From Phormidesmis sp. (lineage in GTDB: Bacteria > Cyanobacteriota > Cyanobacteriia > Leptolyngbyales > Leptolyngbyaceae), in contig CBDFJR010000005.1 of assembly GCA_965248535.1 (NCBI GenBank), forward strand, positions 2,208,001 to 2,272,000: a stretch of DNA of 64,000 bases. The letters run 5' to 3'. The translations under genes and the position numbers were made by a program. Below are positions 18,069-42,817 of the stretch, one piece after another (the first letter of the stretch is position 1; each line of letters starts with the position of its first letter). The notes below the pieces were generated by a model. The model had not been told where the DNA came from. It saw only the letters and a program-made list of their open reading frames with translations, and did no database searches.

Positions 18069-19616
18069 TCACGCCTCTAGAACAACTTTCCCAATAGGAC
18101 AGGCCACACAGGTTAAGATATAGCCTGCTTCTCGATCGCTCGGCTCTAGGGCTTCCGGTTCTGCATCATAACGGACTTCGCCTTCTAGCTTACGCTTTCT
18201 ACACGACCCACAAATGCCTTGCCGACAATTACTGCGAATTTTGATGCCCTCCTGCTCTGCTAGCTCTAGGATTGATTCTACATCTTGAAACACAGCCTCT
18301 TTTTTAGATTGAGCAAAATAGACGCTTGCTTGGGCCGAGAGTGATTTGGGTGTTGAACTAGGAGGTGAACTAGCTGCTGAATCGAGAGGCGATCGAGGCG
18401 TTATCTGTTGCTGAATAGAATGACTAGCGACATCTGGAGTCGGCACTTGTGGTTTAGTTTTCTTGGGCGCACCAAAGCTTTCCTGATAGTAGTTTTCCAT
18501 CGGAAACCCCAGCGCTTCCAGCATTGTCTTGACTCCTTTCATAAAGTTATCTGGGCCACAGACATAAACTGTGCGCTCCTGAAAGTCGGGTGCGATCGCC
18601 TTCAACATAAATTCTTCCAATCGCCCTGTCCAGCCATACCAGAGTAGACCAGGCTCCTGACGGGTGGTTGACAGCGCAAGACGGAACTTGGGCAAGCGAG
18701 TTGCCATCAGTTCTAATTCCTGTCGAAAAATGACATCTTGTGGCGTGCGAGTGCAATGGAAAAAGACCACATCACAGTCGATCGCAATATCCGCTATCCA
18801 GCGCGACATCGACATCACAGGAGTAATTCCACTACCCGCCGAGATGAAGAGCAGCTTTTGATCAGGCTTAGGGAGACAAACAAACTTACCCATCGCACCA
18901 TTTAACCGAAGCAGAGTCCCCACTTTGAGCGTGTCATGCAACCAGTTTGAGACGAGTCCGGCTGGTAGATTAGAAGAGTCTGGCGCAGCAGGAACTCGCT
19001 TAACGGTAATCTCTAGGACGTGAGGACGAGCAGGAGAAGATGAAATAGAGTAGGAGCGCGAAACTGGCTCACCCTGAATGTTTAACTCTAGAGTCACAAA
19101 CTGTCCTGGCTTGTATTGAAAGAGAACAGGCGGAATAGCCGTAAATGTAAAGGTTTTGACATCAGGCGTTTCATTCGTAATCCGCACACAGCAAACCGTT
19201 AATTCGCCTTTAGTCCAGTAAGGGAGATCTTGTGGTGAGCGATCGTTGTCTTGGTTCGCTTGTTCTGCAACAGCAGGCTGCACCGAGCCTTGTATAGGGA
19301 CTTCTATCGCTGCTATCAAGAGAACAAAGTCGCCAATTCCAACTAAGTCCTCTGGCTTCAAAGGAAAACTTTGATGGGGCTTCAACGCTTGGTTATTGAG
19401 ACGAGAGCCATTCGCACTCCCCAGATCAGTATAGTGATACTGGTTGTTCTGAAATTTAATACTGCCATGCAATCGACTAGCATCTGGACTAATCAGAATC
19501 ACATCACACTCCTCAGTCCGACCGATAACGCATTTACCCTGGGGATGGGTTTCTGGAGTGAGGGTTTTCTGTTGGAATTCACCCGTTTGGTAGTTAAATA
19601 CTTTGAGTTTCAGCAT
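18069..19616 (-). CDS. FHA domain + FNR-type FAD/NAD(P) oxidoreductase + C-terminal 2Fe-2S ferredoxin
   Basis: FHA GR..SRLH..NGS; RSYSISS, SAGSGITP, YVCGP; CRQGICGSC..C. Confidence 0.9.
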   Translation of the reverse strand: MLKLKVFNYQTGEFQQKTLTPETHPQGKCVIGRTEECDVILISPDASRLHGSIKFQNNQYHYTDLGSANGSRLNNQALKPHQSFPLKPEDLVGIGDFVLLIAAIEVPIQGSVQPAVAEQANQDNDRSPQDLPYWTKGELTVCCVRITNETPDVKTFTFTAIPPVLFQYKPGQFVTLELNIQGEPVSRSYSISSSPARPHVLEITVKRVPAAPDSSNLPAGLVSNWLHDTLKVGTLLRLNGAMGKFVCLPKPDQKLLFISAGSGITPVMSMSRWIADIAIDCDVVFFHCTRTPQDVIFRQELELMATRLPKFRLALSTTRQEPGLLWYGWTGRLEEFMLKAIAPDFQERTVYVCGPDNFMKGVKTMLEALGFPMENYYQESFGAPKKTKPQVPTPDVASHSIQQQITPRSPLDSAASSPPSSTPKSLSAQASVYFAQSKKEAVFQDVESILELAEQEGIKIRSNCRQGICGSCRKRKLEGEVRYDAEPEALEPSDREAGYILTCVACPIGKVVLEA

Positions 19617-19666
19617 GAGTCCTAAAGGCAAACGGAAAGTGTATCCATCTCTAAAGTTGAATTATT

Positions 19667-41113: not shown

Positions 41114-41185
41114 ACCCCTCTAAGAAATGCTAACTTCATAGGTCTTGACGACAATCTCACAGCAGCAGTACTGGAGCAGTCCACG

Positions 41186-42817
41186 ATGAGTTCTCTCCCA
41201 CAAGACAATCCCTGGATTAACAACTTTCTCGGTGAAGATGCCCGCTATTTTGTAGAAAAGAGCATCACCGCAGGCGGTATGGGAGAGGTGTATCTGGCAA
41301 CTGACATCAAGCTCAACCAGCAAGTCGCGATCAAAGTGTTAAAAGAGTCGCTGGCGACGATGGCGGAGATGTCGGAACGATTTAAGCGAGAGGTGGCGCT
41401 GTGTGCCGCGCTCAATAGTGAGCATATCGTTGAAATTCTAGATTCTGGGGCAACTCCAGAAGGGTATCCCTTTTATGTGATGGAGTATCTCAGGGGGCAG
41501 AGTTTGGGGCAGCTACTCCGGCACGAAAAGCGCTTGTCTCCTAAACGGGCGATCGAGATTATGCAGCAGGTTTGTGTGGGATTGCAAGTCGCTCATAATG
41601 GCGTGATCGTCAATGGCGAACGGATCAGAATTGTTCATCGAGATCTCAAACCTGACAATATTTTTCTAGTAACTTCTAATCTGGGAGAACTGGCAAAAAT
41701 TATTGACTTTGGCATTGCTAAAAAACTACGCGATGGCATCAATGAGCAAGGCTATACAAATTTAACTCAGATGTTTATCGGCACGTTTCGCTATGCGTCG
41801 CCAGAGCAATTAGCCGTGCGAAAAGATATCGATGAACGGGCGGATCTCTACAGTTTGGGCATGATTTTTTATGCGATGCTCACGGGCACCGATCCGTTTG
41901 GCTTTGGGGGGCAAACACGGCAAATCAGCGAGGTCAGTTGGGCGAGAGCGCATATGTCTCAAGCTCCTCAATCCGTGCGATCGCAGCCTGGTTGTGAGCA
42001 ATTTCCCCTAGAACTCGATGCGATCGTGCTGAAATGTTTGCAAAAACTTCCCAAAAATCGCTTCTCTTCGATGGAGGAATTGAAGCAAGCATTAGATACG
42101 GTAATGCCGCTCATTGCATCGCTACCCACGGCGAAAGCCACCCCGCCCAAGTCCGCAGTTGGCTCAGAGGATGAAACGATTCCGGGACGGGCGATTCTGG
42201 TCAATCCGACTGTTGACAAGCCTGTCCAGCGCGATGCGATTGCTCAAACTGCACAGCCAGAAGCATCACCGAATTCTGAGACGATCGTTCAAATCCCGAT
42301 CGCGATTAATCCCGCATATGCACCCACTGTATTTCGACCATTAGTTCCGTCGGCTGAGGTAGAAGAAACGATTGTTCAAGCAGCAGCATCAAATCAGCAG
42401 GAAGAAACGATCGTTCAAAAGCGAGATGCTACCCATTTAGACAGTCCGAGTCAAACCATTTTTCAGGAACCACCAGTTCAACAAAATCCGAGTCAGACCA
42501 TTTTTCAGGGAACACCAGTTCAACAAAATCCGAGTCAGACCATTTTCCAGGGAACACCAGTTCAACAAAATCCGAGTCAAACCATTTTCCAGGGAACACC
42601 AGTTCAACAGAATCCGAGTCAAACCATTTTCCAGGGAACACCAGTTCAACAAAATCCGAGTCAAACCATTTTTCAGGGAATACCAGTTCAGCAGAATCCA
42701 GCGCAAAAGAATGTTCAAGAGCAGATCCAATCTTCAGTTTCTGGACTTCTCCGTGTGCCTTCGCGGATAGCAGATACAACTCGCCGCTTAATTACCTTCA
42801 TTCGGCAACGGAGATAA
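41186..42817 (+). CDS. Hanks-type Ser/Thr protein kinase, cytosolic, with repeat tail
   Basis: GGMGEVY, VAIK, HRDLKPDN, DFG, YASPE; no TM segment. Confidence 0.95.
   Translation: MSSLPQDNPWINNFLGEDARYFVEKSITAGGMGEVYLATDIKLNQQVAIKVLKESLATMAEMSERFKREVALCAALNSEHIVEILDSGATPEGYPFYVMEYLRGQSLGQLLRHEKRLSPKRAIEIMQQVCVGLQVAHNGVIVNGERIRIVHRDLKPDNIFLVTSNLGELAKIIDFGIAKKLRDGINEQGYTNLTQMFIGTFRYASPEQLAVRKDIDERADLYSLGMIFYAMLTGTDPFGFGGQTRQISEVSWARAHMSQAPQSVRSQPGCEQFPLELDAIVLKCLQKLPKNRFSSMEELKQALDTVMPLIASLPTAKATPPKSAVGSEDETIPGRAILVNPTVDKPVQRDAIAQTAQPEASPNSETIVQIPIAINPAYAPTVFRPLVPSAEVEETIVQAAASNQQEETIVQKRDATHLDSPSQTIFQEPPVQQNPSQTIFQGTPVQQNPSQTIFQGTPVQQNPSQTIFQGTPVQQNPSQTIFQGTPVQQNPSQTIFQGIPVQQNPAQKNVQEQIQSSVSGLLRVPSRIADTTRRLITFIRQRR
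42445..42699 (+). repeat. Six tandem 42-bp repeats (PSQTIFQGTPVQQN)
   Basis: Direct reading of DNA and protein. Confidence 0.95.

Follow-up and report, generated by a model that had tools for sequence, protein, structure and literature searches.

We analysed a 64,000-nt stretch of the genome of the cyanobacterium Phormidesmis sp. (‘the window’; contig CBDFJR010000005.1, hereafter C5), in which the genes of a contractile injection system (CIS) are accompanied by genes for a Hanks-type Ser/Thr kinase, three FHA-domain proteins and a membrane Fe-S protein. The studied part spans positions 18069..42817; unless preceded by the name of a contig, coordinates are those of the window. An initial annotation had read the kinase, the FHA proteins and a threonine-containing peptide motif that recurs in disordered regions as one phospho-Thr/FHA network controlling CIS assembly or firing. 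The genes and features of this set, from one end of the studied part to the other, are:

18069..19631, minus strand: FHA-reductase, with an FHA domain (19332-19532), FAD_binding_6, NAD_binding_1 and a C-terminal plant-type 2Fe-2S domain (Pfam)
19667..21475, minus strand: polytopic membrane Fe-S (polyferredoxin-like) protein of 602 amino acids (aa) with a disordered-looking C-terminal tail (weak Fer4_5 match)
19721..19894, minus strand: stretch of the Fe-S protein tail with four T-Φ-L-R motifs (TLLR, TVLR, TVLR-P and TILR-P; Φ, hydrophobic residue)
33271..35232, plus strand: FHA-MGS, with an FHA domain (33355-33555), an acidic linker of ~400 aa and a methylglyoxal-synthase (MGS)-like C-terminal domain (34786-35139) (Pfam)
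34012-34566, plus strand: FHA-MGS linker motifs, one TVIQ and two TVLQ
35577..37763, plus strand: membrane WD40 protein, with an Ig-like region at the N-terminus, a single hydrophobic helix and a WD40 propeller at the C-terminus (Pfam, sequence)
37776..39983, plus strand: membrane Ig protein, with NEW3/CARDB-like repeats flanking one hydrophobic helix (weak Pfam matches)
40127..41113, plus strand: FHA328 (328 aa), with an FHA domain (40211-40411), a disordered linker and a helical C-terminal region (Pfam)
40460-40495, plus strand: FHA328 linker motifs D-A-T-V-M-R and D-A-T-I-I-R-P
41186..42817, plus strand: Hanks-type Ser/Thr kinase, with the catalytic domain at 41252-42085 and a 200-aa tail holding 11 motifs (Pfam)
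42445..42699, plus strand: 42-bp tandem repeat of 6.1 copies, encoding six NPSQTIFQGTPVQQ units of the kinase tail (Tandem Repeats Finder)

The five genes for FHA-MGS, the WD40 protein, the Ig protein, FHA328 and the kinase are co-oriented and follow a first block of CIS genes, with gaps of 12-345 bp. The Fe-S and FHA-reductase genes, located on the same strand 35 bp apart, diverge from the CIS operon. Regulators that bind cyclic nucleotides are encoded on both sides: a Crp-like factor (16962-17732), the gene of which adjoins the FHA-reductase gene, and a cyclic nucleotide-binding histidine kinase at 60786-62135.

The domain assignments of the initial annotation hold. PF00498 matches all three FHA proteins with E-values of 1e-13 to 4e-13 (50.2-51.7 bits, cut-off 20.7), the GR, SxxH and NG(S) residues are intact in each of the three domains, and the N-terminal strand that the proteins share is present as it had been quoted; in alignments A3 (reductase FHA) and A5 the FHA hallmark residues are invariant or nearly so. 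There is one kinase in the set (PF00069, E-value 9e-47, 160 bits, cut-off 31.7), and its catalytic residues – VAIKVL (VAIK), HRDLKPDN and DFG – are all present. Ser/Thr kinases and FHA proteins abound in cyanobacteria, and in this genome we detected 24 matches to the former and 17 to the latter. When the 17 FHA domains are placed in a maximum-likelihood tree, the three window domains form a single clade with one FHA-reductase paralog encoded on contig C2 (support 98/99), and all four members carry the FHA domain at the extreme N-terminus and open with the same β-strand. As judged by this tree, the three window FHA domains are siblings.

The partner domains are less sharply defined. The best NCBIfam match of the FHA-reductase is a GbcB-type reductase, with a score below the cut-off. 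The C-terminal domain of FHA-MGS matches MGS in NCBIfam with an E-value of 5e-21; at 75.0 bits versus a cut-off of 84 (NF003559) and 74.5 versus 146.9 (TIGR00160), the protein is not a profile-confirmed methylglyoxal synthase, and by these scores its domain is MGS-like only. Homologs of the Fe-S protein are named ‘4Fe-4S binding protein’ or ‘polyferredoxin’ in their sources. Finally, the window contains no phosphatase gene, as had been noted initially: all five PP2C_2 and four SpoIIE matches of the genome fall outside it, in a search that covered these two phosphatase families.

The motif instances that had been reported under the pattern T-[VILMF]-[VILMF]-[RQ] can all be found. The kinase contains ETIVQ three times, PTVFR once and QTIFQ six times, to which we add one previously unlisted TFIR; TLLR, two copies of TVLR and TILR are present in the Fe-S protein, TVMR and TIIR in FHA328, TVIQ and two copies of TVLQ in FHA-MGS, and TIIQ and TIVQ in a 1065-aa protein encoded further downstream, among the CIS genes. 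The six QTIFQ copies derive from the one 42-bp tandem repeat. We considered two further kinds of instances, a single TVVQ in each of two DUF4157 proteins and a single TLVQ in the AAA+ ATPase of the CIS, and took them to be chance, with one copy per protein. The gene for the 1065-aa protein has a tandem repeat of its own (111 bp, 47460-47792, 3.0 copies with 91% matches), which encodes three 37-aa units.

To place these counts in context, we scanned the genome as a set of crude longest-open reading frame (ORF) calls, made without gene prediction: 719 copies in 1,433,331 residues of 4,338 ORFs, or 0.50 per 1000 residues. The kinase, with 11 copies, ranks first in the genome and the Fe-S protein, with four, second. 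At least two motifs within 80 residues were found in 34 proteins. Four of these are encoded in the window (FHA-MGS, FHA328, the kinase and the Fe-S protein), and the majority of the remainder carry the motifs in folded contexts such as the Walker regions of ABC transporters. Disorder was judged by composition, plus one AlphaFold2 model. The window accounts for 12 of the 49 copies that lie in disorder-like sequence, with 2,212 of the 111,865 such residues (2%), and the motif is indeed commoner here than in other disorder-like sequence. Composition-preserving shuffling (5000 shuffles per region) yields a mean of 0.27 motifs for the kinase tail as compared to 11 observed (none of the 5000 shuffles reaches this count), 0.15 as compared to six when the repeats are collapsed (none), 0.03 as compared to four for the Fe-S tail (none), 0.02 as compared to two for FHA328 (one shuffle) and 0.11 as compared to three for FHA-MGS (one shuffle). 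For the 1065-aa protein, the two observed copies against a mean of 0.54 are reached in 510 of 5000 shuffles, which is not significant. The enrichment is therefore borne out for four of the five proposed carriers, and the 1065-aa protein stays at chance level. Several other disorder-like sequences of the genome carry the motif (C5 624279-625529, C5 1620425, C2 2452278, C2 753104 and C2 1440775) in forms such as ATMLQ/ATVLQ, ETIVQQPP, EDTIVQPP and PTLFRQ; these proteins could be further substrates of the same kinases.

The motif extends well beyond the window. Homologs of the kinase number 1012 at E<=1e-40, with named sources including Nostoc, Calothrix, Chroococcidiopsis and a Pseudanabaenaceae strain. 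Among the best 120 of the 1012, 116 have the motif as initially defined in the post-catalytic tail, at a median of five copies and 17 per 1000 residues (552 in total versus 15.9 in shuffled tails). D/E at -2 and P at +4 make up the usual context (examples are DDTILRP, DKTLFQP, DETVIRP and EETIVQ). While the conserved T-Φ-Φ-(R/Q) core is real, its definition proved too narrow, as K is also found at +3 and Ala is allowed at +2. In its fuller form the motif reads [D/E]-x-T-Φ-(Φ/A)-(R/K/Q)-P, the two outer positions being usual, and it is not specific to the locus.

The second family that carries it is that of the membrane Fe-S protein, which was detected in 129 of the 301 genomes sampled from the class. 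Here we define a cassette consisting of a kinase(-WD40) gene, a short membrane Fe-S gene and a gene for an FHA-FAD/NAD-2Fe2S protein (the FHA-reductase). We examined 63 loci with a short-form Fe-S gene, the window included, after dropping one more locus that runs off its contig. The FHA-reductase gene lies directly downstream in 46 of the 63, the window’s pair among them. The pattern T-[VILMF]-[VILMFAY]-[RK], broadened after the first 23 loci had been seen and hence partly post hoc, occurs in the last 60 aa of 41 of the 46 partnered Fe-S proteins versus none of the 17 unpartnered ones; for the later 39 loci the figures are 23 of 26 versus 0 of 13. The five partnered tails that miss the pattern hold near-variants, for example TEIR, TQIR and TIGK. 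The narrower T-Φ-Φ-(R/Q) of the initial annotation fails on these tails, fitting only seven of the 46. The window Fe-S protein has three motifs in its last 60 aa and four in its last 80, and the last 90 aa contain one motif or more in 88 of 112 short homologs that belong to the window subtype; together, these 112 tails hold 154 motifs versus 10.4 after shuffling, 98 of them with D/E at -2 and 78 with P at +4.

The kinase follows the same division. Outside the window, a kinase gene precedes the Fe-S gene by no more than 4 kb at 23 of 28 partnered loci and at one of 12 unpartnered loci; it is fused to WD40 in 22 of the 23, and the single unpartnered case is a weak match (28%). Counted among these 23 is the host’s own second copy on C2, where a kinase-WD40 gene is followed by that of an Fe-S protein ending in ...TLARTIAKPSKK and then by an FHA-reductase gene. 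In the window, no kinase(-WD40) gene is found immediately upstream of the Fe-S gene: this position is taken by the divergent CIS operon, and the kinase and the WD40 protein are encoded separately, 14-20 kb away. At each of the five closest orthologs of the window Fe-S/FHA-reductase pair (61-65% identity), genes for a WD40 protein and for a kinase lie no further than 6 kb away, the kinases being 48-52% identical to that of the window; four of these five kinases contain one linker site each, TVAR[SP] or TIVRP, and the kinase of locus L068 contains none. No CIS genes were found within 20 kb at these five loci, which indicates that the motif is not a CIS-specific device.

Site and reader also appear to have changed together. 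In 39 partnered loci, the residue at the canonical Asn position of the FHA domain (D-x-G-S-x-N-G-S) tracks the +2 residue of the motif: Asn is paired with a hydrophobic +2 in six of eight cases (the other two are mixed), FHA domains with Ser, Ala, Phe or Gly at this position have motifs with Ala or Gly at +2 in 25 of 26, and Asp is paired with other residues. The FHA domains embedded among the CIS genes and that of the window reductase have Asn, and their candidate motifs are hydrophobic at +2. This covariation reflects few clade-level changes and is therefore supportive rather than decisive. Complex prediction for the reductase FHA domain (A3) and the 90-aa Fe-S tail gave a score of 0.00, which counts neither for nor against binding, as the tool does not model phosphothreonine (pThr). 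We regard the kinase-site-reader cassette as the best indirect evidence for a phospho-Thr/FHA code. As judged from these tails, the motif characterises both a large family of cyanobacterial kinases and the kinase/Fe-S/FHA-reductase cassette, and it looks like a widespread cyanobacterial signalling code.

The Fe-S family also has longer members. Forms of ~950 aa end in a cyclic-nucleotide-binding region, and forms of ~1050-1100 aa have an FHA domain inserted before it, which indicates that FHA is joined to the family by fusion in some lineages and by gene pairing in others. We had considered the ~950-aa relatives as possible reductase fusions and rejected this, their C-termini being cyclic-nucleotide-binding regions, in some cases with FHA in between.

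FHA328 carries its candidate sites next to its own FHA domain. All 32 orthologs, many of which are near-identical metagenome variants, contain [D/E/N]-x-T-V-Φ within about 20 residues past the FHA domain, with K/R at +3 in 22 and P at +4 in 20 (a typical form is EDATVVKP). The AlphaFold2 model of FHA328, built from a 22-sequence alignment, gives residues 1-105 a predicted local distance difference test (pLDDT) score above 90 and models the motif-bearing segment (residues 106-159) as disordered, with pLDDT below 50. The helical C-terminal region yielded no Pfam match and no usable protein atlas match. Residues from about 135 to 260 are 40-51% identical to stand-alone proteins of ~135-185 aa encoded in many sampled cyanobacterial genomes.

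The CIS genes on either side of the five-gene run are the following:

21734..32592, plus strand: first CIS block, with a Pvc16_N cap, sheath, two gp19-type tubes, three small unknown ORFs and an AAA+ ATPase with a winged-helix domain (Pfam)
25508-25867 and 25833-26240, plus strand: u119 and u135, small paralogous ORFs after the tube genes (no Pfam match)
29139-30350 and 31057-32592, plus strand: two eCIS_core (DUF4157) proteins, part of the first CIS block (Pfam)
42893..43591, minus strand: TetR-family regulator, between the two CIS blocks (Pfam)
45095..51487, plus strand: second CIS block, with a tube-like protein, the 1065-aa tape-measure-like protein, CIS_tube and a VgrG-like spike (Pfam)

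With the Pvc16 cap, sheath, tube, spike, AAA+ ATPase and DUF4157 proteins all matched by Pfam in the window, the system falls into the extracellular CIS (eCIS) class. The same scan detected no gp25-like or Baseplate_J gene in the window, and the Pfam-scanned ORFs beyond the spike gene (from 52453) are unrelated; the nearest baseplate genes lie at C5 2348413-2350655 (wider stretch 2345753-2350781), 76 kb past the end of the window. The host has a second CIS set on C2, at about 520000-531000. The two eCIS_core proteins have near-identical N-terminal halves and unrelated C-terminal regions without Pfam match, as would be expected for alternative cargo or effector modules. The gene order Pvc16-sheath-tube-tube-u119-u135 is kept in seven other genomes, and as u119/u135 orthologs come after the tube genes in all seven, the two ORFs probably encode conserved parts of the CIS. 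A Ser/Thr kinase of 469 aa, with one hydrophobic helix, is encoded at C5 2350955-2352364 (plus strand), divergently adjacent to the host’s gp25-like baseplate gene, and kinases of ~290 aa with a zinc ribbon follow the sheath-tube-u119-u135 module in genomes G094, G167 and G189.

In a sample of 301 genomes of the class, 118 encode a related sheath; in one of 401, three encode an FHA328 ortholog, the host included. The module is therefore accessory rather than a core CIS part. Where FHA328 loci have context, CIS genes are adjacent in four of five (the window, G267, L061 and G366; L062 was excluded from this count to avoid possible double counting). In G267, the cap, sheath, tube, tube, u119, u135, FHA-MGS and FHA328 genes follow one another on one strand, with no adjacent kinase gene. 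L061, from a Pseudanabaenaceae strain, has FHA-MGS, FHA328, a kinase with eight motifs, two DUF4157 proteins, a tube and a tape-measure protein. G366 has the same sheath module, followed by an FHA protein with TVIQ, TVVQP and TILQ, an FHA328-like protein, DUF4157 and AAA+ genes and, finally, a kinase with nine (D/E)-E-T-I-A-Q-V-P units. The FHA-MGS orthologs of G267, L061 and G366 retain T-V/I-Φ-Q motifs, and a motif-tailed kinase stands alongside in the window, L061 and G366. At the remaining locus, L063, which begins 207 bp upstream of the FHA328 gene, there are no CIS genes in the 10 kb downstream. In three further named assemblies, top kinase matches and FHA328 orthologs come from contigs of equal length. 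An ortholog of the Ig membrane protein (39% identity) is encoded ~15 kb from the sheath gene in G183. From conserved synteny, namely the placement of the module inside CIS clusters in a number of lineages, we infer that it may feed into the assembly, anchoring or firing of the CIS.

Taking these observations together, we propose with moderate confidence that the window encodes a phospho-Thr signalling set based on [D/E]-x-T-Φ-(Φ/A)-(R/K/Q)-P sites in disordered tails and linkers, organised in two modules, one of which would be coupled to the CIS. The Hanks-type kinase would phosphorylate the motif Thr on its own tail, the Fe-S tail, the FHA328 linker and the acidic linker of FHA-MGS, and the three sibling FHA domains would read the phosphorylated motif. 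As the motif travels with the kinases and with this FHA clade, writing by the kinase and reading by FHA is the most economical explanation. The redox module is an ancient cyanobacterial cassette, in which phosphorylation of the tail would dock the NAD(P)H/2Fe-2S reductase onto its membrane Fe-S partner. The accessory module – FHA-MGS, FHA328 and a motif-rich kinase, a rare combination that is placed within CIS clusters in few lineages – would most likely couple a cellular signal to CIS assembly, anchoring or firing. The FHA328 motif, lying beside the protein’s own FHA domain, may lead to self-binding or chain formation, and the multi-site kinase tail and FHA-MGS linker may give rise to multivalent assemblies. 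Of the network proposed initially, the sibling FHA clade and the conserved motif that travels with it and with the kinases survive; the motif is, however, wider than first defined and not CIS-specific, and the membership of the 1065-aa protein is not borne out.

Several points weigh against the two-module proposal. WD40 propellers co-occur with the kinase and could be the reader instead. The +3 residue is variable, being S, T or G in some FHA328 orthologs, and the FHA328-like protein of G366 is entirely without motif. FHA328 is rare, the five loci closest to the window pair lack nearby CIS genes, and there is no phosphatase gene nearby, as far as PP2C_2 and SpoIIE are concerned. The supplements of a Nostoc flagelliforme phosphoproteome contain no matches to the motif strings; the accessible part of its text gives [TxL] as an enriched pThr motif. 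Finally, the pattern used for the Fe-S tails was in part chosen post hoc, few clade-level changes underlie the covariation, and the loci are related by descent, so that the counts overstate independence.

It is possible, if rather unlikely, that the same pThr/FHA code operates without any role in the CIS, serving redox and metabolic targets (the Fe-S protein with its reductase, the MGS-like domain) at loci where CIS genes are neighbours only because these loci are mosaics of mobile, rearranging modules. This would fit a cassette that is widespread and that in five genomes has no CIS genes within 20 kb, as well as the very large size of the motif-tailed kinase family (1012 matches at the above threshold); none of its members lies within ~40 kb of the G272, G183 or G078 sheath gene (the sole match in G078 has 27% identity), the CIS genes are themselves scattered, with the host baseplate 76 kb past the window, and the opposite-strand TetR gene interrupts the cluster. 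It sits poorly with the recurrence of FHA-MGS and FHA328 beside CIS genes in four of five genomes, the gene orders of which differ, arguing against a single inherited accident, and with G267 and G366, where both FHA genes directly follow sheath-tube-u119-u135 on the same strand.

We find it improbable that the motif is real but is not an FHA ligand, being read by WD40 propellers or acting as a kinase-docking or membrane-targeting element, with FHA reading other sites. This would account for the WD40 fusion of the upstream kinase, seen at 22 of the 23 partnered loci with such a kinase, for the WD40 proteins that accompany the window-type pair and, in the window itself, for the gene at 35577-37763; furthermore, R, K or Q at +3 is, to our knowledge, not among the pT+3 preferences of FHA domains. 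Against a WD40 reader or a docking role stand the Pfam families listed for the best 120 kinase homologs, which are exclusively of kinase type plus PF26309 or PF03109 in a few, the tracking of the tail motif with the FHA-reductase gene (41 of 46 versus 0 of 17), the retention of the motif within about 20 residues of FHA328’s own FHA domain, and the covariation of an FHA pocket residue with motif position +2. That the recurrence of the motif is a functionless by-product of low-complexity composition and tandem repeats is very improbable. While six of the 11 kinase copies do stem from one 42-bp repeat and the two copies of the 1065-aa protein are within chance, this explanation is contradicted: composition-keeping shuffles never reach the counts of the kinase and Fe-S tails, even with the repeat collapsed, and the motif keeps its place and its flanking residues (D/E at -2, P at +4) in hundreds of otherwise divergent tails.

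The two-module proposal can be taken one step further, to a version in which we have little confidence. A multivalent pThr/FHA assembly might link the redox state of the photosynthetic membrane, via the Fe-S protein and its FHA-docked reductase, to CIS firing and stress lysis. Redox or light stress would prompt the kinase to deposit D-x-pT-Φ-Φ-R-P marks, to which FHA328 and FHA-MGS would be recruited; once there, these two would license anchoring or firing of the CIS and hence stress-induced cell lysis. If so, a cyanobacterial CIS would for the first time have a described regulatory input, and FHA domains a new class of specificity, with a basic residue or Gln at pT+3 and Pro at pT+4. Short of this, a conserved motif that connects a single kinase family with a single FHA clade and with defined targets offers a testable writer/site/reader code, the cassette points to an electron donor that docks onto a membrane Fe-S protein under the control of phosphorylation, and the few lineages with the module inside a CIS cluster are a place to look for the CIS trigger, of which we know none in cyanobacteria.

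The motif and the cassette appear undescribed within the literature that we searched. A search on the motif strings returned nothing relevant, and one combining contractile injection system, FHA and cyanobacteria returned only one unrelated paper. A 2025 review of cyanobacterial Ser/Thr phosphorylation has no occurrences of ‘FHA’, ‘motif’ or ‘consensus’, and a 2007 survey of cyanobacterial kinases, in its accessible part, mentions FHA only as a fused domain. The CIS of Anabaena sp. PCC 7120 is thylakoid-anchored, and stress triggers CIS-associated formation of ghost cells, according to the accessible part of the report (PMC8894136), in which ‘FHA’ and ‘kinase’ do not occur. As in Anabaena, the cyanobacterial cluster studied here is eCIS-like, with sheath, tube and DUF4157-type proteins. 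The stress-triggered ghost cells of Anabaena make a stress-sensing input plausible.

Individual parts of the set resemble better characterised systems. The window Fe-S protein is polytopic and has Fe-S cluster motifs, and in this it is presumably similar to FesM, reportedly described by Xu et al. in 2005 (cited in PMC9003380) as a membrane iron-sulfur protein of Synechococcus sp. PCC 7002; no source of the homologs uses the name. GarA and OdhI, of Mycobacterium and Corynebacterium, are FHA proteins with an ETTS phospho-acceptor motif of their own that is phosphorylated by PknB/PknG. Like them, FHA328 has a conserved Thr motif in a disordered segment beside its FHA domain, phosphorylation of which could cause self- or head-to-tail binding. 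Unlike in GarA/OdhI, the motif lies C-terminal to the FHA domain and has another sequence, and the helical C-terminal region has no counterpart; scores of 35.5 and 37.8 bits versus a cut-off of 200 place the FHA proteins outside the OdhI equivalog. Multivalent clustering of the M. tuberculosis ABC transporter Rv1747 depends on two FHA domains together with a disordered linker that bears pThr. The window likewise combines several candidate pThr sites in disordered regions with several FHA domains, which would allow multivalent assembly at a membrane protein, with the difference that here sites and readers are on separate proteins; clustering here is conjecture.

A further parallel is the threonine phosphorylation pathway of the P. 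aeruginosa H1 type VI secretion system (H1-T6SS), consisting of the kinase PpkA, the phosphatase PppA and Fha1/TagH. In both cases a Hanks-type kinase and an FHA protein are encoded within a contractile-injection cluster, and the presumed logic is that of pThr-FHA gating. The differences are considerable. The window cluster is not a T6SS with TssB/C sheath and TssM/L membrane complex and is of the eCIS type (Pvc16_N, phage sheath, gp19-type tubes, AAA+, eCIS_core), its kinase lacks a transmembrane or vWA sensor part, and there is no adjacent PP2C gene in the window to correspond to PppA. The FHA proteins score 41.6 and 48.6 bits on the TagH model (TIGR03354), far below its cut-off of 120.25. 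Finally, unlike the T6SS pathway, the window encodes three FHA proteins with unrelated output domains, together with a recurrent, multi-copy motif.

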